From an uncultured Nitrospiraceae bacterium (lineage in GTDB: Bacteria; Nitrospirota; Thermodesulfovibrionia; Thermodesulfovibrionales; UBA6898): a stretch of DNA of 64,000 nucleotides. Below the pieces are notes generated by a model, which ran no database searches, was not told the origin of the DNA, and saw only the letters and a program-made list of their open reading frames with translations. Below, one piece after another: positions 51,607-60,354 of this stretch (position 1 is its first letter; each line of letters begins with the position of its first letter). Position numbers and translations under genes: made by a program. The stretch spans positions 1-64,000 of the forward strand of contig CAWEQH010000004.1 in assembly GCA_963811165.1 (NCBI GenBank), written 5' to 3'.

Positions 51607-52374
51607 CTATTTTTTGTCGATCAAGACCTTCAGCGCATTTGCGTCCCGGAAACCCGAGATAACCCTGCCGTCCGGCATCACCAGGGTGGGAGTGCCTGTT
51701 ATGCCAAGCTTCTTCCCCAGGGCTATGTTTTCATCCACGGCCGACGTCTTGCATTTTGGTTTGGCCACCGGTTTTTTCTCGAAGGCGGCATCAAGCAGCG
51801 CAAGAGATTTCTCGCAGACGATCGCCTTTGCTTTTTCAGCCGCTTCCTTATGGATCGGCAGGGGGAACATCTTTATGAAGAAAACGACGTCTTTTCTTTC
51901 TGCAATTACCTTCTTGAGTTCAGGATGGAGTTTTGCGCAGAATGGACAGTCCGGGTCTGTGAAGACTATGACCCGTTTTTTTGCTTTTTTGTCGCCCATG
52001 ACGATGGCGTCTCCGAGCGGGACCTTCGAAACATCGATCCTGTTGAGTTCCTCTGCCGCTTCCTGGGTGAGGTTTCTCTTGCCCTTGATATCGATGAGCT
52101 GGCCCGATATCAGATATTTCTTTGTGATATCGAGGTAGAGCGCTCCTTTCTTACTGCCTGATTCAATGTCTATCTCCCACATGGATTTCATAGGTGTGAG
52201 TTTGATACTGAGTATCTTGACGTTCGGTACGATGTCCTTCAGTAATGCTTCCGCCTCTTCCTTTTTTAAGGTGTGACACTTCGCGCAGTTTTCTCCCTTA
52301 TTGCTGAATCCGTAGGAATTTGAGGCATACTGCAGAATGGCCAAGGCCGCTACGAGAAACAAAATCTTGCGCAT
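51607..52374 (-). CDS. dsbC: DsbC-family thiol:disulfide isomerase with N-terminal CxxCH
   Basis: Signal peptide, CAKCH, FTDPDCPFC, GITGTP. Confidence 0.85.
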   Translation of the reverse strand: MRKILFLVAALAILQYASNSYGFSNKGENCAKCHTLKKEEAEALLKDIVPNVKILSIKLTPMKSMWEIDIESGSKKGALYLDITKKYLISGQLIDIKGKRNLTQEAAEELNRIDVSKVPLGDAIVMGDKKAKKRVIVFTDPDCPFCAKLHPELKKVIAERKDVVFFIKMFPLPIHKEAAEKAKAIVCEKSLALLDAAFEKKPVAKPKCKTSAVDENIALGKKLGITGTPTLVMPDGRVISGFRDANALKVLIDKK

Positions 52375-52429
52375 TGATAACCTCCGGTAAATTGTTTTCT
52401 CACCATGACGCCGCCAGGACGCAAGTCTG

Positions 52430-53137
52430 CTACCTGACGCGTAAATAAGGCATTACATCTTTCTGGAAATCTATGGAGGAAAAATAATTTCCTATCGCGG
52501 TCCTGTAATCCCCGATGGATTTCATCGCCTCTGCCGCGAGGATAAACCTTTGCTGGAGCCCGATCATGCCGTTGTTCGCTTTCAGCGCCGAGATAAAGTC
52601 CTTGTACTGGGCAGAAGCGGTGAGCGCCGCCACACTATGCCAGTTCTTTGCAGATGCCATTGTCATGGCAGGCCCGCCGATATCGATGTTTACCCTCGCC
52701 GTCTCCGACGTCGTACCCTCTTTTGCAATTACCGACGAAAAAGGATAGAGGTTGCCTACGAAGACATCGAAGTAAACGCCCGGGGTACCTCCCATCTTTG
52801 CCAGCGTCTTATACAGGTATTCCTCGTGGGCGGGATTGCCTCTTTCGGCAAGAAGGCCGGCGTGGATCTTCGGGTGGAGTGTTTTGACAAGGCCGCCCTC
52901 CATCTCGGGCGCTCCCGTGAAGTCCTCGACCGAGGTGTAATTCCTGGGCGCATCGGTCCCGAGGATCTCCATGATCTTCTTCCCTGTGCCGCCGGTCGAA
53001 TAGAACCTCGCATCGCGGTTCACATCGAGGATGCCCCTGACCAGGTCGTCCAGCCCGGATTTGTCGAATACACTCACCAGTATATGAGACGGTTTTATCA
53101 GCTCGACTACCTGATAGATATTCTCTCTGATGCTCAT
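52430..53137 (-). CDS. Stand-alone IMP cyclohydrolase (PurH N-terminal/MGS-like domain)
   Basis: SVFDKSG, STGGT, VKTLHPKIH, NLYPF, IDIGGP, ASAKN; no AICAR transformylase domain. Confidence 0.88.
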   Translation of the reverse strand: MSIRENIYQVVELIKPSHILVSVFDKSGLDDLVRGILDVNRDARFYSTGGTGKKIMEILGTDAPRNYTSVEDFTGAPEMEGGLVKTLHPKIHAGLLAERGNPAHEEYLYKTLAKMGGTPGVYFDVFVGNLYPFSSVIAKEGTTSETARVNIDIGGPAMTMASAKNWHSVAALTASAQYKDFISALKANNGMIGLQQRFILAAEAMKSIGDYRTAIGNYFSSIDFQKDVMPYLRVR

Positions 53138-53195
53138 AGGTCCCCCTGTGTCCAGTGGATTTTTATTCGTCTATAATAATACACGGGGATGAGTT

Positions 53196-53811
53196 TTATC
53201 CATTTGTCCGGGGCATATCGATGATCATCTCCGCGACCGTCTTCCGGCGGCGTCCGGTGAGGCCCACAAGCCTTCTCAGTTCTATCTCCAGCGCTGCCAT
53301 CCCGGAATACCATTCCGTCCGGTCGAGCACAGGTTCGGCCGGGCCGGCCGGGATTACTTCTTCAGCAAACCTGTGGCATCCAGCGCCTGTCTGTTCGGAC
53401 CCGTCCGGTTTCCTTACCCGGTGGGGGATCCCGTGCAGCCGGCAGATCATCGGCCTGTATTCATAAAGCCGGCAGAGGCCCGCAAAGTTGAGCGGGCAGA
53501 GCACCCGTTCAGGGCTGCCCTGCAAATCATGAAGACGATAAAGCCCCACCGCATCTTCCGCCCTGGACAGGACCTCAGCGGCCGTGTCGGCATCGAGCGA
53601 ACCCATCCCTTCGATCAGATAAAGGTGTTCGGCAAGCGTATAGTGGGAGAACCTTTCCTCGCAGCAGCTTCTCCGAACAGCCGCCGCACCTGAAACCATG
53701 ATATTCCGCTGCCCTGAGGTAAGCCGCGTCCATTGAGGAATAGAGGCCTTTGATCTTAAGTACGTAAGGCGCGAGAGTCCCTTTGAGGAACTCAGAGAGG
53801 GGAAAATCCAT
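53196..53811 (-). pseudogene. YkgJ/CxxCxxCC-family Fe-S/zinc cluster protein split by a 1-bp frameshift near 53670
   Basis: ORF 53575..53811 reads GFRCGGCSE then drifts; ORF 53196..53699 continues CCEERF...CPLN...CRLYEYRPMICRLHG. Confidence 0.75.
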
Positions 53812-53813
53812 TC

Positions 53814-54008
53814 TTACGCTCTGTCACAAGAGCGGCCCGATATCTTTTCCCAGGTCTTTTCGTCGATTTCATTGATATATTGGGAGAGGGTGAATTTCCT
53901 GCCGCAATCCATGCAGCGCAGTGCCACGCCGCGTCAGCCGAAGGTAAGCTGCAATGTTCCTTTACACCCCCGGCATTTTAATCCGAGGTCTTTCGAAGGT
54001 CCTAACAC
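53814..54008 (-). CDS. Dual-CXXC small selenoprotein, 64 aa, UGA at 53934-53936 read as Sec
   Basis: (V/M)LGPSKDLGLKCRGCKGTLQLTFG-U-RGVALRCMDCGRKF...SCDRA; two CXXC flank an in-frame TGA; SECIS-like hairpin follows; stop lies 2 nt before the next ATG. Confidence 0.75.
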
Positions 54009-54251
54009 AGAATTATTTTACCGCATCCAGAGTCGTTTTGTGAATAGGCGAATTCCGCTGATCGGACAAGCGAATCAAGTCAGCCCGAATATTTCGTCGA
54101 TGTCGGACCCTGGCAGTGCCCCCTCGTTCACCCCGCTGCGTTTCAATGCCTTCGCCTCCTGATAAAACCTGAAAATTCCTTTTGAAAAATAATGAGGAAT
54201 GCGCCGACAAACTCTCAGTACAGGGATTTCATTGAGAACGTTGATTTCCGA

Positions 54252-54312
54252 AAATAACACGCGGGTCACGCGCCGCGCTTTCGGCGCGACGCTGTGGACC
54301 GGCTCGTTGGAA
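54252..54312 (-). other. Integron attC recombination site
   Basis: Minus strand TTCCAAC-5 bp-GGT(C)CAC(A)GCG...CGCGTGACC-5 bp-GTTATTT, 61 bp, two extrahelical bases. Confidence 0.65.
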
Positions 54313-54381
54313 TCATCATAGCGATCGTCATCTTACAGTTAATTGGTAACATCAAAACCTATGACCCTGATCGGTTGATTC

Positions 54382-54418
54382 AAAAAAAGATGGCAGAGCT
54401 ATTTCTGACCCTGCCATC
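54382..54418 (-). terminator. Terminator of the 54505-54990 gene
   Basis: GATGGCAGGGT...GCTCTGCCATC followed by T7 on the minus strand. Confidence 0.75.
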
Positions 54419-54504
54419 CCTATCCGATGGAACAAGCATTTTACTTGGGGCCACTTGCCGGTTTCATAAGCTCATCCATCTCTGGTCTTCCCCCCGTATC
54501 AGGA

Positions 54505-54990
54505 TCACTGACAGGCCGTACCTGGTTTACAGCCTGAGTAATAGTTACTGATCCGACCGCTGATGGAATCAAGGTGCTGTTTCCAGGGGGATGGCTCAAT
54601 GCCCATACGCCAGAGAATGTAACCAAGTGGATCTTCCATGCTCAGAGCATTTATCCGTATGCCTTCAAGGGCAAAGAAGACTCCCATCAGGTCGACGTCC
54701 TGATCATTGTAAGGAGGCAGTTCGGCCAAAACGTCTGCGACTTGGGCATCGAGGACTGACAATTCGGCTTTTATGCCCGCCAAAGCAATCCCTGTACCTC
54801 TTGGCAACGACGAAGCCGTCATCAAAAAGTCCAGACTCTTTTGGATCAGGTCCATGTTGAGATTCGCGGAATGGAGCGTGCCGATTTGTGGCTGCCAGGG
54901 CGAGGGTTCAACGCCTGCAAAGGCTGGGCTTGACAAGAACGACAAAAAAAGGAGCCCTATCATCACCGTTATTAGAACTCTTCCATTCAT
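54505..54990 (-). CDS. Exported hypothetical protein with repeated G(V/I)EPSPW motif
   Basis: Signal peptide ending AFA; motif occurs twice; purine-rich RBS. Confidence 0.7.
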   Translation of the reverse strand: MNGRVLITVMIGLLFLSFLSSPAFAGVEPSPWQPQIGTLHSANLNMDLIQKSLDFLMTASSLPRGTGIALAGIKAELSVLDAQVADVLAELPPYNDQDVDLMGVFFALEGIRINALSMEDPLGYILWRMGIEPSPWKQHLDSISGRISNYYSGCKPGTACQ

Positions 54991-55255
54991 GATGCTATCT
55001 CCTTCCCTTTTACTAAGGTTAGTAAATGAAAAGGCCAAACTCACCTTTCCCCCTTCTCTCAAAGGGTTTGGCTTTGTCGGAAACCTGCCCCCTCTTAATT
55101 ACTTTTTATCACTAGAAAATGCTGTTGTCAATTTGTAACTTTAGGTCTCTAACTTCAATATCAAAAGGCGACTTGCCCTATTGGTTACCGTTTGAGCCTT
55201 CCCCGAATTGATGGACACACCTAAAGATTTGTAAGATGGAAAAGGAGGTGTGTGT

Positions 55256-55558
55256 ATGGGGAAAGAGGATAGGCGTCGTCATTTCACGAGGGAGTTCAAG
55301 AGGAATGCTGTTCACCTTGTGACGGAGAAGGGTATGCCGGTAGGGAAGGTAGCTCGGGACCTTGATATTCATCCCAACTTACTTCATTTATGGAGAAGGA
55401 GGTTGCTGAAAGACGGGGAGAAGGCATTTGTGGGGAAAGGCCATTCAAGTCCGGAGGGAGCGGAGATAAAGCAGCTTCGGAAGGAATTGGAAAGGGTGAG
55501 GGAAGAGAGGGACATTTTAAAAAAAGCCTTGGCCGTATTCTCCAAACGCAGCAGATGA
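55256..55558 (+). CDS. IS3 transposase OrfA
   Basis: FTREFK...VARDLDI...W HTH, ERDILKKA; A7G slippery site at 55519-55526. Confidence 0.92.
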   Translation: MGKEDRRRHFTREFKRNAVHLVTEKGMPVGKVARDLDIHPNLLHLWRRRLLKDGEKAFVGKGHSSPEGAEIKQLRKELERVREERDILKKALAVFSKRSR

Positions 55559-56412
55559 AGTACGGGTTGATGGAAGAGCATCGGGAGAAGTACAGGGTGG
55601 GAAGCATGTGCAAGGTGTTAAAGGTATCCAGGAGTGGGTATTATGCGTGGCGCAGCCGTCCGCTTAGCAGGAGGCAAAAGGACAACCAGGAGTTGCTGGG
55701 ACACATACAGGAGATCCACAGAAGAAGCAGGAAGCTGTACGGGAGCCTAAGGATCACGGCTGAACTCAATGATGAGGGTGTCAAATGCGGGAAGAACCGG
55801 GTAGCCAGGATCATGAAGGATCATGCCATATGCGGGGAAGTGAAGAGGAGGAGGGTTAGGCGGACTACCGATTCACGGCATGATTATGCTCTGGCGGCAA
55901 ACCTGCTGATTGGCAAGAGACAGACCGATGGGGTATGGGCATCAGATATTACGTTTGTTCCTACTTCCGAGGGGTGGTTGTATGTGGCAGCTGTGATAAA
56001 TGTGAAAAGCAGAAGAGTTATAGGGTTGTCCATGAGCGATAAACTTTCTCAGGAACTCGCCTCTGATGCGCTAAAAGCGGCAGCCAGCAGGCAGAGCCCT
56101 CCTGAGGGGTTGATCCACCACTCCGATCGAGGCAGGCAGTACGCGAGTTATGCATATCAGGAGCTTCTCAGAGAATACGGCATTACTCCGAGTATGAGCA
56201 GAAGTGGTAATTGCTATGACAATGCCTATGCGGAGTCATTTTTCGGAACGCTCAAGACGGAATTGGTCCACGGTGAGAAGTACCGTTCACGGCTTGAGGC
56301 AAGGCTTAGTATCTTTGAGTACGTAGAAGTGTTTTATAATCGTCAGAGGAGACACTCGGCATTAGGCTACAAGAGCCCAGAGCAATTTGAACGGCTCCTT
56401 GATGAAACTTAA
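55555..56412 (+). CDS. IS3 transposase OrfB (DDE; fused to OrfA by -1 frameshift)
   Basis: VSRSGYY, WASDIT, HHSDRGRQY, CYDNAYAESFF, YNRQRRHS. Confidence 0.93.
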   Translation: MKYGLMEEHREKYRVGSMCKVLKVSRSGYYAWRSRPLSRRQKDNQELLGHIQEIHRRSRKLYGSLRITAELNDEGVKCGKNRVARIMKDHAICGEVKRRRVRRTTDSRHDYALAANLLIGKRQTDGVWASDITFVPTSEGWLYVAAVINVKSRRVIGLSMSDKLSQELASDALKAAASRQSPPEGLIHHSDRGRQYASYAYQELLREYGITPSMSRSGNCYDNAYAESFFGTLKTELVHGEKYRSRLEARLSIFEYVEVFYNRQRRHSALGYKSPEQFERLLDET

Positions 56413-56698
56413 CCAAGTGTCCACATTATCGGGGAAAGCTCAGTTTGAAAGGTTCAGTTATGAGAACTGTATCAGAAGCGTTGAGTACAGGAAGGAACTG
56501 AAAAATATTATCCGACTCTGTCGGCTGCTTATATACGTCTTTTCCACGATCAGTACCAACACGAAACCGCTAGGCGTCTGATTACCATCGGGCGTCGAAA
56601 CCTCCCACTTGTTCTTATCATTCCAGTGATCTCTGTTATAATGATGTTGTTTTCAAGTTAAATAAAAAAAATGATATATTAAATCCAAGGGGCTTAAT

Positions 56699-58228
56699 AT
56701 GATTGACTCTGAAACAAGTACTTATTTGCTCGGCCATTTCAATCTTGGTGCTTCCACTGCGGAAAACGATCCACTTTTAGCATCCGCAAAGATTGAAACT
56801 CAAGAATGGAATGATTTATATTCTTATGATCGTATTGATTTAATAAGAGGAATCAAGGGATCTGGTAAAACAGCACTGTATCGTCTCTTCTCCTTGCTCC
56901 AAAAATTTATGCTAGAACAGAAAAATACATATTGTGTTTTTGGAGTCGAGCCCAGCGGTGATCCAATTTTTCGCTTATATCAAAAAGAATTCGCCAACTT
57001 TAACCAATTTGAATTTGAAAACTTCTGGGGAGTTTATTTCATAGCCTTAGTTTACAATTTAATTTATATCACTCCAGAATTAAAGGCTGCGCTCGACGAC
57101 GAACTCGAAAACTTAGATGCAATGCTGCAAAAAATAGGGCTGAAGTTTAACAAAAATGGATTCACCCGCAATGATTCTATTAAATCATATCTTGCAATTA
57201 TTGCACGGTCTAAGCTGGGATTTGGTATAAAAACAGGGCTCGATCCACAAACAGGGATGATAACATCCGTTACACCCACAGTTGAAATAGATTCTAAAAA
57301 TGCCGAAGAGATATCTCTTAGGCCAATCTATCTCGCTGAATTTCGAGATGGACTCGCTCAGATATTGAGCAATAAGAATTTAAGAATATGGGTTATGCTT
57401 GATCGTCTTGATGAAGTCTTTCCCCACCGAAGCGAAGTTGAAAAGATAGGGTTACGTAGTCTTTTAAAAGCATCCTATAACTTTTCACATCCTAACCTGC
57501 GAACAAAAATTTTCCTGCGTGATGATATTATTGGGTATTTGGCGGCAGATGGATTTACAGCATTAACTCACGTTACTGACAGAAGTTCATCAACTATGTC
57601 ATGGTCAAAAGATGAGTTGTTGCATCTGATTGTTAAGCGCGTGTCTGCCTCTGATGCTATTGCTATCCACTATGAAATCGATACTAAAAGAATTGATAAC
57701 GATAAGGATTATAGAGAGACGGTGTTCTATAAAATATTCCCCTCCAAAATTGGAAAAACTTATACTATGGATTGGCTTTATTCTAATTGTGCTGATGCCA
57801 ATAATATTGTTACTCCACGCGACATGATAGATTTTTTTAAATTTGCAAAGTCTGAACAATTTAAGCAGAACAAATTGAACCCGCAAAATTACGAATTCCT
57901 AATTACTGAAGATGCTTTTAAAAAGGCATTAGATGATTTGTCGATGAATAAAAAGGATACTTTTTTATTTGCTGAATTTCCACACCTTAAGGAAGTGTTA
58001 CTAAAATTTGAAGGTGCATATTCCGAGTACAACAAAGAAAGTTTTGAAAAACTCGTCGGGCCTGAATATATAAAGATATTGGATGATCTGCGCGGAATTG
58101 GTTTCATCAAACATATTCCCAAAAGCGGCACTTACAAGATTCCTGTTATTTGGAGAAAAGGGTTAAATATTCGTAGAGGCAAGGCACACGTAAAGAGGGC
58201 TCTTCGAAAAAGAGCTACTGACGAATAA
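56699..58228 (+). CDS. P-loop ATPase, Sll1717/FunZ-like (tentative family), AT-rich
   Basis: LG...AEND, Walker A GIKGSGKT, Walker B VMLDRLDE, IFLRDDI, TPRD; TGnTATAAT promoter at 56634-56642. Confidence 0.7.
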   Translation: MIDSETSTYLLGHFNLGASTAENDPLLASAKIETQEWNDLYSYDRIDLIRGIKGSGKTALYRLFSLLQKFMLEQKNTYCVFGVEPSGDPIFRLYQKEFANFNQFEFENFWGVYFIALVYNLIYITPELKAALDDELENLDAMLQKIGLKFNKNGFTRNDSIKSYLAIIARSKLGFGIKTGLDPQTGMITSVTPTVEIDSKNAEEISLRPIYLAEFRDGLAQILSNKNLRIWVMLDRLDEVFPHRSEVEKIGLRSLLKASYNFSHPNLRTKIFLRDDIIGYLAADGFTALTHVTDRSSSTMSWSKDELLHLIVKRVSASDAIAIHYEIDTKRIDNDKDYRETVFYKIFPSKIGKTYTMDWLYSNCADANNIVTPRDMIDFFKFAKSEQFKQNKLNPQNYEFLITEDAFKKALDDLSMNKKDTFLFAEFPHLKEVLLKFEGAYSEYNKESFEKLVGPEYIKILDDLRGIGFIKHIPKSGTYKIPVIWRKGLNIRRGKAHVKRALRKRATDE

Positions 58229-58263
58229 TAAAAAGTGGACACTTTCTAAATTATATGATGAGC

Positions 58264-59587
58264 CACTAGTGTCCGGTTAAGAAGTGAATAAATTCAACTG
58301 GTTTTGATTTTCGAGCATAACTGAACGTTCTTCGATAGTCTGAAATGCTTGTTGCAAAGGCATTTTCTCGAAAAGGGTAATCGAGAGAATCTGTAACAAT
58401 GTATAAAGGGATGCATCGAGATTGAGCTTTTTCTTGATGATGGCGATGAGTACATACATGGAAACGGCGATCCAGATTTGGGTCTTCACAGCGTTTTCCG
58501 ATGTACCATAAAACCGTTTGATGCGAAGATGCTGTTTGATCCATTTGAAGAACAGTTCGATCTGCCAACGGCTTTTGTAGAGTGCAGCGATTGTGAGTGC
58601 TGATAGAGTCGTGTTGTTGGTAAGAAAGATCAGAGTTTTGTCTCTCTCGATATCTTTGAAGCGAATACGACGCAAATGTTCGGGGTAATGACAATGACTG
58701 TAGTAGCCGTTCAACATAATGCTCTGGTCGCAGATAATGCCAGAGGATCGGTCGACGGGCGCAGAGTATACGCGCCTTGCATTGAGGTTCGACTTTGTGC
58801 GGGTCACAAAGAAACTGCCTGCCCGGTGCAACGCATAAAGACGAGCGAAGTCCATATATGCCCGATCCATGATGTAGAACGCCCCAGGTTCCGCAATAAG
58901 CAGGTCGAGAATATTGATGTCGTGCCACTTGCCGTCGGTGATGTGAATGAAACTGGGGATTGCACCCTTGAGATCCAAAAGTGTATGGACTTTGACTGCG
59001 GCTTTTGTATCGCGGAACGGAGCCCATGGGAACACCGAAAGACAAAGATCGATGGTTGTGGAGTCCAGCGCATAAACCGTGTTGGAAAGATCGAGTCCCA
59101 AATCCTCGTCTGCGTAGAGCCTTCTTGCTTGAGCGATCAGTCTCTGCGCAAAATCGGCGTAGATGCGCCAGTCTCGGGATTCGTTTGCGTCGGCCAGAGT
59201 CGACCGAGAAATCGCTCCGTTGAGACCCATATGGTAAAGCTTCGAAGCCTGAGCCGAAAGGCACGCTTCTATATCGCGCAGACTCTCCCGATAGGTCAAT
59301 TGGGCGAATGCCAAGATGCGAAACTGCTCCGTGCAGCGAAAGGTACGAATACGATGATCGCCTCCATAGCGAGCGACTATACGATGAAATGTGCTCCAAG
59401 GGAGAAAATCCATGATTTGCGCAAATAGGGTCTTGCCAGTATACATTGGCACCTCCGGGAATTTCAGTTCCAGAAGGATTGCCCATTCGGCGATATCTAT
59501 TCAAGTCGACACCACCAAAAATATTGCAAATATTCTTATCTGTCATATAGTTTTAAGTATCAGCCGTTTCTTAACCGGACAGCACTG
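58264..59587 (-). mobile_element. IS4-family insertion sequence, 1324 bp
   Basis: TIRs CACTAGTGTCCGGTTAAGAA / TTCTTAACCGGACAGCACTG; 9-bp duplication ATGATGAGC at 58255-58263 and 59588-59596. Confidence 0.95.
58277..59452 (-). CDS. IS4-family DDE transposase
   Basis: LDSTTI, MDRAY, YKSRWQIELFFKWIKQ (YREK). Confidence 0.95.
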   Translation of the reverse strand: MPMYTGKTLFAQIMDFLPWSTFHRIVARYGGDHRIRTFRCTEQFRILAFAQLTYRESLRDIEACLSAQASKLYHMGLNGAISRSTLADANESRDWRIYADFAQRLIAQARRLYADEDLGLDLSNTVYALDSTTIDLCLSVFPWAPFRDTKAAVKVHTLLDLKGAIPSFIHITDGKWHDINILDLLIAEPGAFYIMDRAYMDFARLYALHRAGSFFVTRTKSNLNARRVYSAPVDRSSGIICDQSIMLNGYYSHCHYPEHLRRIRFKDIERDKTLIFLTNNTTLSALTIAALYKSRWQIELFFKWIKQHLRIKRFYGTSENAVKTQIWIAVSMYVLIAIIKKKLNLDASLYTLLQILSITLFEKMPLQQAFQTIEERSVMLENQNQLNLFTS

Positions 59588-59754
59588 ATGATGAGCAATC
59601 AATAACTGAGAGATATATTCTCATGACAACACAATCCTGCCGCTTCATCAGTCTCAAGAGAAAACAATTCAATTTCGGTCGAACTCCAAACAATAAGAAC
59701 GGCAAAGAAATATGCGGTGTACAGGAAGGAATCGTGCGTCTTGGCCTTTGGTGC

Positions 59755-60287
59755 CTACGCCCTTGTTAAAAACATTCCGGCAAACTCCTTAAGCTCTTCG
59801 GAGCCGACTTCGCCCGAGGCTGCAAGCTTTCCGTATGCGCCGGATGGGTCGTTATGGACAGCAAAGGCGACTCTTTTAACAGCATTTGCAAAGCGGCCTA
59901 TCCTCTCGTCCACTTTTTTGGCAAAAAGAAAAGGCATTAACCTCGTGAATAATCCAACGAAGGGCTGCTGATCTTGATATAGCCGGTGGTCGTTGAGTCT
60001 ACTGAGGCTCCCGCCTCATTGAGGCGCTCGGAATACGATGTCATCAGCACCATATGACCGTTGAACCTGATCTTTAGAATGTCGAAATGGCCCGAAATAA
60101 AATAGACCCTCCTGCTGCGGACAGAATTGACGAGTTCCACGTTCCCCGCCAAGCCCGCAGGATCGTCGACATGGATTAAGCCGTCAGGCCTGACCTCTAT
60201 TTTGTATAATTCCAAAGACGGGTCGTAGAAGTGCGCGAGAACCATGGAAAGGCGCGGGTGGTCTATCAGGAACTCATACTGCCTCAA
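59755..60287 (-). pseudogene. Hypothetical gene, apparently frameshifted near 59960 and possibly 5'-truncated
   Basis: Adding one base at AGCCCTTCG joins the two ORFs as ...KISSPFVGLFTRLMPFLF...; no RBS before the TTG. Confidence 0.5.
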
Positions 60288-60354
60288 ACTGACCGATTAT
60301 GCACTTACGGCGGTCCTTGGCGTATAATGAGATAGTTCAGTCCAGGAGGTTTTC

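Follow-up and report, generated by a model that had tools for sequence, protein, structure and literature searches.

A 64-residue dual-CXXC protein, which is almost certainly a true selenoprotein of the NCBIfam family NF041197, is encoded at positions 53814..54008 on the minus strand of the window, the stretch of 64,000 nt from an uncultured Nitrospiraceae bacterium that was analysed here. The gene is a further member of an already catalogued family, and the selenoprotein call of the earlier note on this DNA is correct but ordinary. What is added here is modest: a natural control for the replacement of Sec by Cys, selection on the SECIS hairpin at the codon level, a start predicted to be leaderless and a loose link with sulfite reducers.

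A hidden member of the NF041197 family

The frame comprises 64 codons from a GTG start at 54008 to a TAA stop at 53814-53816 when the TGA at 53934-53936, codon 25, at which relatives have TGA or a Cys codon, is taken as Sec. Coordinates, stop and translation hold exactly as the earlier note had given them, as do its statements that the gene is missing from the ORF track, the standard code giving no ORF of at least 50 aa over this frame, and that its stop adjoins the next gene, whose ATG lies 2 nt past the TAA. Two close relatives (L018 and L036) have ATG in place of the GTG. Besides the predicted Sec25, the protein contains Cys at positions 12, 15, 32, 35 and 61. The first CxxC (Cys12 and Cys15, 53964..53975) is invariant in alignment A1 and the second (Cys32 and Cys35, 53904..53915) in alignments A1, A3 and A5; given the zinc-ribbon-like model, both are predicted to supply zinc ligands. 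Cys61 (53826..53828), in the C-terminal R-x-C-D/N-R tail, is a candidate resolving cysteine.

Resemblance to a family of dual-CXXC small (seleno)proteins, which the earlier note had pointed out, was borne out by a match to NF041197 of 58.5 bits (cut-off 40) that aligns residues 12-63 with positions 1-52 of the 53-position profile. The protein is small and stand-alone, with two CxxC motifs and a Cys/Sec between them, and shares with the family entry (CxxC_Se_CxxC) a full-length match, the CxxC-x9-U-x6-CxxC spacing, an acidic helix and the C-terminal D/N-R-x. It differs in belonging to a Nitrospirota Sec clade (support 99/92), of which Trp53 and the tail Cys61 are typical, and in reading G-U-R at the site, where the Desulfobacterota forms in this analysis mostly read R-x-C; G-U-R loosely resembles the GxU/RxU variants described in the available text of PMC13188914. 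Pfam gave only sub-threshold zinc-finger matches. A search with the single protein sequence yielded no homologue, profile searches did find homologues, and the viral contigs searched contained no relative. The two nearest named loci belong to a Thermodesulfovibrionales bacterium (91%) and to Ca. Sulfobium mesophilum (77%), which makes the order Thermodesulfovibrionales (Nitrospirota) the likely home of the host.

The family has appeared in catalogues under several names. As far as the available portions of these sources go, OS_HP3 entered the literature in 2007 as a newly predicted family of selenoproteins that possess a SECIS (PMC1976440), 'hypothetical protein DW' was predicted in Desulfosarcina (PMC12013277), and a review equates the two with NF041197 (PMC13188914); the terms searched for in PMC13326102 gave no match. 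The literature search returned catalogue mentions only, with no functional or labelling experiment among them. Members are missed or shortened by gene callers, many database records being stumps of 32-38 residues that start after the UGA, although the gain to annotation is small. An 843-residue cluster member (P0260) was rejected as a fusion, having neither a CxxC domain nor a Pfam match. In one record (P0098) the domain ends a 216-residue protein whose N-terminal part is unrelated; this lone case may be an artefact of read-through.

Probable selenocysteine at codon 25 and its hairpin

The TGA at codon 25 is very likely decoded as Sec by means of a SECIS inside the coding sequence. The machinery for this, whose presence was a test set beforehand in the earlier note, is found in the genome: selA, selB and selD score over their cut-offs and a tRNA-Sec gene is present; the selD gene carries an in-frame TGA of its own. 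The expectation that homologues would have Cys at the TGA site was likewise borne out, in 154 of the 160 distinct short protein records fitting the motif. The remaining records have Trp (4), Asn (1) or Arg (1), and the four with Trp are likely cases of TGA read with another code.

Within the order, 92 of 101 genomes carry a match to the family, 93 matches in all, and 91 of the 93 contain exactly one TGA, with coding sequence conserved on both sides of it. One of the two others starts past the site at a contig end. The second, in a genome that is 99% complete by markers (G015), has TGC at the site, and neither selA, selB, selD nor tRNA-Sec was found in that genome, whereas selA is present in all four congeners tested. 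This indicates that the residue was kept as Cys when the use of selenium was lost, and makes G015 a clean natural control for Sec-to-Cys replacement. The gene in question (G015:C115:494-649, L038), the only member with a Cys codon in the order sample, belongs to a genome of 1.7 Mb that contains dsrB. The hairpin sequence is retained in this gene, and two Arg-to-Cys changes lie near the site.

A wider sample of the phylum comprised 201 genomes, 95 of which had a match; after two weak partial matches in long ORFs were dropped, 93 carriers remained. selA was found in 89 of these, and three of the other four have a TGA-bearing selD, so that their selAB genes are probably unassembled. The gene is absent from all 79 genomes that lack both selA and dsrA. 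Although related genomes are not independent observations, the TGA and Cys patterns across relatives all agree in direction. Positions at which Sec and Cys interchange are nearly always redox-active or catalytic.

The putative SECIS, GCUGCA-UGGAU-UGCGGC (53901..53917, minus strand), has a 6-bp stem and a UGGAU loop and spans codons 31-36 (Arg-Cys-Met-Asp-Cys-Gly). According to the available parts of PMC13188914, bacterial SECIS elements have a loop of 3-9 nt, a stem of 4-16 bp and a G in the first two loop positions (Fig. 2A legend), a spacing of 16-37 nt and an energy limit of -7.5 kcal/mol. The hairpin described in the earlier note agrees with each of these rules, with a 5-nt loop, G at loop positions 2-3, 22 nt from the UGA to the loop and an energy of -7.9 kcal/mol. 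That part of the claim stands, but the hairpin departs from the consensus in not being the dominant fold of naked RNA in this genome, where a rival that overlaps it has the greater stability. A free 60-nt RNA does not adopt it as its minimum-energy fold, its z score against shuffles is -0.98, and of the 126162 TGA triplets found genome-wide, 3573 (2.8%) get through an identical hairpin filter; taken alone, the hairpin is therefore weak evidence. It is raised above chance by its conservation across relatives. The six stem pairs form in 98.6% of 288 cells (48 distinct TGA-form sequences), the inner five being predicted by RNAalifold as well. For comparison, a different clade with 80 Cys-form loci has the pairs in 352 of 480 cells (73%), and all six together in just 10 of the 80. 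No Rfam model matched at its gathering score in 52000-56000.

Compensatory, double-sided changes in the stem were not seen in the TGA-form sequences, because the stem falls within codons for Cys and Gly, and codon controls were used instead. Each of the two stem Cys codons is TGC in 49 of 51 sequences, as against 38 and 31 of 51 for the Cys codons of the first CxxC. Similarly, the Arg codon at +6 is CGC in 43 of 44 cases, compared with 63 of 254 Arg codons elsewhere in the gene and 13 of 41 in Cys forms. At the level of sequence, these controls show the SECIS hairpin to be under selection.

The rival hairpin (53913..53932, minus strand), which overlaps the 5' arm of the SECIS, is the minimum-energy fold of free RNA in this genome, with a pairing probability of 0.98. 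It is not conserved across orthologues, in which 58% of cells are paired, and it is lost when nt 1-14 are kept unpaired, a 14-nt mask that represents the assumed cover of the ribosome on the UGA. With those 14 nt unpaired, the pair probability of the SECIS core rises from 0.02 to 0.99. Among the loci fitting the pattern (43 of 49 TGA and 67 of 81 Cys loci), the masked core pair exceeds 0.5 in 37 of 43 TGA loci versus 11 of 67 Cys loci. The assumed cover follows work on E. coli, and the SECIS here is predicted to fold once the ribosome lies over the bases that directly follow the UGA.

That no selenoprotein is made, the TGA being a true stop, a sequencing error or a codon read as Cys or Trp, is very improbable: the assembly does carry indel errors, the SECIS is hidden in free RNA and the genome contains a second tRNA-Sec-like gene, but the TGA is kept in 91 of 93 matches of the order and flanked by conserved coding sequence, that second tRNA has the anticodon GCA and not UCA, tRNA-Trp has CCA and several orthologues use TGA as gene end, and the switch to TGC accompanies the loss of Sec genes.

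The second tRNA-Sec-like gene (G000:C4:471037-471126; L159:6037-6126) matches Rfam RF01852 with 57.3 bits (cut-off 47), has a long variable arm and lies between a LysR-like gene and genes for CMD-family, rhodanese and TusA-domain proteins. It fits the selC* class of tRNA-Cys described for Nitrospirae in the accessible part of PMC5389517. A shorter paralogue of the selenoprotein gene, with CxxC-x9-TGA-x6-CxxC and no D/N-R tail, was found in one genome (G176:C1:1672635-1672763; L039, L076), directly behind an Mrp/NBP35 ATPase gene.

Predicted structure, possible function and a loose tie to sulfite reduction

AlphaFold2 models the protein as a beta-hairpin with residue 25 at its turn, a third strand and two helices (strands 18-23, 28-32 and 38-40; acidic helix 50-57). 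Confidence is moderate (pLDDT 74 and pTM 0.55; 70 and 0.48 for a second model), and the models gave no distances, that between Sec25 and Cys61 included. The four knuckle Cys are predicted to be ligands of one metal ion. Fold searches returned weak, generic zinc ribbons only (best Z 4.0, rmsd 4.2, 64 residues aligned; TM at most 0.59 outside the family), and Foldseek gave no match at E <= 0.001. Ribbons of RPB9/RPC10/TFIIS, the C-terminal ribbons of topoisomerase I, HypA, LysW and ZifS (PDB 8yoz; a literature search on ZifS found no paper) have two CxxC knuckles joined by a beta-hairpin, as is predicted for this protein. None is a significant match over the whole domain, and the NF041197 family is set apart from generic ribbons by a fifth invariant Cys/Sec at the predicted hairpin tip and by its D/N-R-x end. 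LysW ends in EDWGE, which is absent from the protein studied here. A homodimer prediction for Cys-form homologues with Zn scored 0.03 (mark 0.42) and carries no weight either way.

All 72 Cys-form proteins have the fifth Cys, Arg stands two residues before it in 149 of 160 records, and the model places residue 25 at the hairpin turn, away from both CxxC motifs. A Cys/Sec that is invariant, flanked by Arg and predicted to be exposed is in line with a catalytic nucleophile. An acidic tail (mean charge -2.6 to -5.5), which usually ends in D/N-R-x, accompanies the basic ribbon (+3 to +5.6). Cys occurs at -4 in 43 of 49 TGA forms versus 35 of 84 Cys forms ending D/N-R/K-x, a comparison in which the Cys forms include near-duplicates, the tree is poorly resolved and the enrichment of Cys61 in Sec forms is largely that of one clade; among forms ending Y-D/E, 15 of 92 have Cys at -5. 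A universal resolving Cys was thus rejected, Cys61 not being in all members.

The reading that we place first, tentatively and a little short of calling it probable, is a zinc ribbon that presents Sec25 for a relay of thiol-disulfide or persulfide exchange. Sec25, at the predicted hairpin tip, would act as the nucleophile against a disulfide or persulfide bond of a partner protein docked on the basic ribbon or the acidic tail; Cys61, where present, could then resolve the Se-S bond. The partner would probably be a sulfur-handling protein of sulfite-reducing anaerobes. This reading is weakened by the lack of a conserved functional neighbour, by a Cys61 that is not universal, by models of moderate confidence and by generic folds. 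It is nonetheless placed ahead of a metal chaperone, a redox regulator, an iron electron carrier and the absence of any selenoprotein.

An unlikely alternative is a chaperone resembling HypA, in which the zinc ribbon would be structural while Sec25, the acidic tail and Cys61 bind a second soft metal (Ni, Cu or Hg) or an Fe-S fragment for hand-over. The acidic tail would suit such a task, the family profile matches the zinc-ribbon stretch of HypA (E 1.8e-4), the shorter paralogue in G176 follows an Mrp/NBP35 ATPase gene, and YkgJ-like cysteine-cluster genes adjoin the gene in Nitrospirota loci, directly downstream in 8 of 50 and divergently upstream in 20 of 50. HypA, however, has an N-terminal nickel site that is without counterpart here; the match spans the ribbon half only, the HypA model NF003008 scored 14.1 bits against a cut-off of 125, and cluster-protein genes are not among the recurring neighbour clusters of 80 Cys-form loci.

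Slightly less likely again is a redox-sensing regulator whose basic ribbon would bind RNA polymerase, the ribosome or nucleic acid in the manner of TFIIS/RPB9 ribbons, with oxidation of Sec25 switching the binding. RPB9/RPC10, TFIIS and topoisomerase ribbons being among the nearest folds, the charge of the ribbon and the location of a mostly single-copy gene amid housekeeping genes are in keeping with it, but all these fold matches are weak and generic (Z <= 4) and the acidic tail speaks against simple nucleic-acid binding. Lower still we rate an iron-loaded, rubredoxin- or Dph3-like carrier of single electrons that would feed an Fe-S enzyme through Sec25 at its surface. Four Cys in two CxxC motifs could hold Fe as well as Zn, and the named hosts are anaerobes; such carriers, though, are not known to need a fifth invariant Cys/Sec, and no rubredoxin or Dph3 entry occurs among the PDB sequence and fold matches listed, an absence that excludes nothing.

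Returning to the exchange relay, the named hosts of the family belong to Desulfobacterota and Nitrospirota, with the anaerobes Desulfobulbaceae, Desulfovibrio, Bilophila and Ca. Electrothrix among them. In the phylum sample, 91 of the 93 carriers have a full dsrA match, while in the genome studied here dsrA is in pieces. G015, with its Cys codon, keeps both dsrB and the gene, and two genomes (G063 and G192) lack dsr and the gene alike; a third (G113) is also without the gene, but so are its dsrA-positive congeners. Exceptions in both directions led to the rejection of a strict coupling to dsrA: the gene is absent from 14 of 101 genomes with selA and dsrA and from 8 dsrA-positive genomes of family f18, and one genome (G161) has the gene without any match to dsrA or dsrB. 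Weak matches in genomes lacking the gene were dismissed as Trm112-like or other ribbons at the 9 loci inspected of 18, one being the short paralogue of G176. The family thus follows dsrA loosely, and the link is confounded by kinship.

A far-reaching extension, which we consider improbable, would make the family an overlooked, near-universal redox partner of dissimilatory sulfite reduction in Thermodesulfovibrionia and Desulfobacterota: a zinc ribbon tipped with Sec or Cys for the reduction or loading of DsrC or another sulfur carrier, expressed here from a leaderless mRNA whose SECIS folds under the ribosome only. The gene would matter more only if it were part of sulfite reduction. Nearly always single-copy and carried by 92 of 101 genomes of the order, it makes a fair knockout target in a tractable sulfate reducer with the Cys form.

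Start of the gene and its surroundings

A candidate sigma-70-like promoter, TTCACA-18-TAAAAT (54015..54044, minus strand; 10 of 12 matches), is the best of five such sites in 4.2 kb, where 3.2 are expected and hence no enrichment is seen. Its -10 box stops 6 nt short of the GTG, and no Shine-Dalgarno sequence is present, so that the transcript is predicted to be leaderless. With up to four candidate starts allowed per locus, 23 of 30 order-level loci (L006-L035) have a -10-like box that lies 5-11 nt upstream of one of them. In family f20, where aspS precedes the gene, none of the 12 loci shows this arrangement, which is common in the order Thermodesulfovibrionales. Together these patterns suggest that the transcript may be leaderless or have a very short leader, from a putative promoter of the gene's own. 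None of the papers listed in a literature search contained 'leaderless'. In the genome at large, a -10-like box stands 5-11 nt ahead of 61 of 743 likely ATG starts (8.2%) and of 1.7% of all ATGs, a hint that a minority of genes in this organism have no leader or a short one.

Downstream of the selenoprotein gene lie a YkgJ-like cysteine-cluster gene, a gene for a stand-alone PurH N-terminal domain and dsbC. The YkgJ-like gene (53196..53811, minus strand), on which a literature search found nothing of use, is split into two ORFs by one extra base near 53669 and is intact in relatives. This base is absent from the contigs of all three covering related runs (two studies), and dsrA of this assembly (C8:231910-233082) is likewise in frameshifted pieces, so that the frameshift is likely an assembly error and broken genes of this genome are to be distrusted. 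The related-run contigs end 12-14 nt past the TGA and do not by themselves confirm that codon.

The reading of function from an operon was rejected because no neighbour holds across lineages, one lineage having purH-like and YkgJ-like genes and another aspS. Among 50 Nitrospirota loci, about 20 have the stand-alone PurH-N gene behind the selenoprotein gene and 7 or 8 a YacP-like nuclease gene downstream, a metallo-beta-lactamase-fold gene is the divergent neighbour in 14 and aspS lies upstream in 11. Of 80 Cys-form loci from metagenomes, 69 have pyrE ahead of the gene. By a reliable signature, selD is near the gene in only 2 of the 12 f20 loci; two other 'SelD' neighbours look like chance motif matches. 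The PurH-like protein of this window (52430-53137, minus strand; 235 residues) matches PurH in its N-terminal part alone, the IMP cyclohydrolase.

On the other side of the selenoprotein gene, an insert of ~6 kb (about 54209-60300) separates it from the metallo-beta-lactamase-fold gene. An unannotated gene in which GIEPSPW-like motifs recur has at its 5' end (55017-55081, minus strand) a weak match to the c-di-GMP-I-GGC riboswitch (18.9 bits, gathering score 59, E 0.46), which is probably due to chance. The insert contains an IS3-type element (55250-56412), a Sll1717-family ATPase gene (56699-58228) with a weak match to the PADLOC candidate PDC-M28C (E 1.5e-8) and a DDE transposase gene (58277-59452), and related strains carry other DNA behind 54208.
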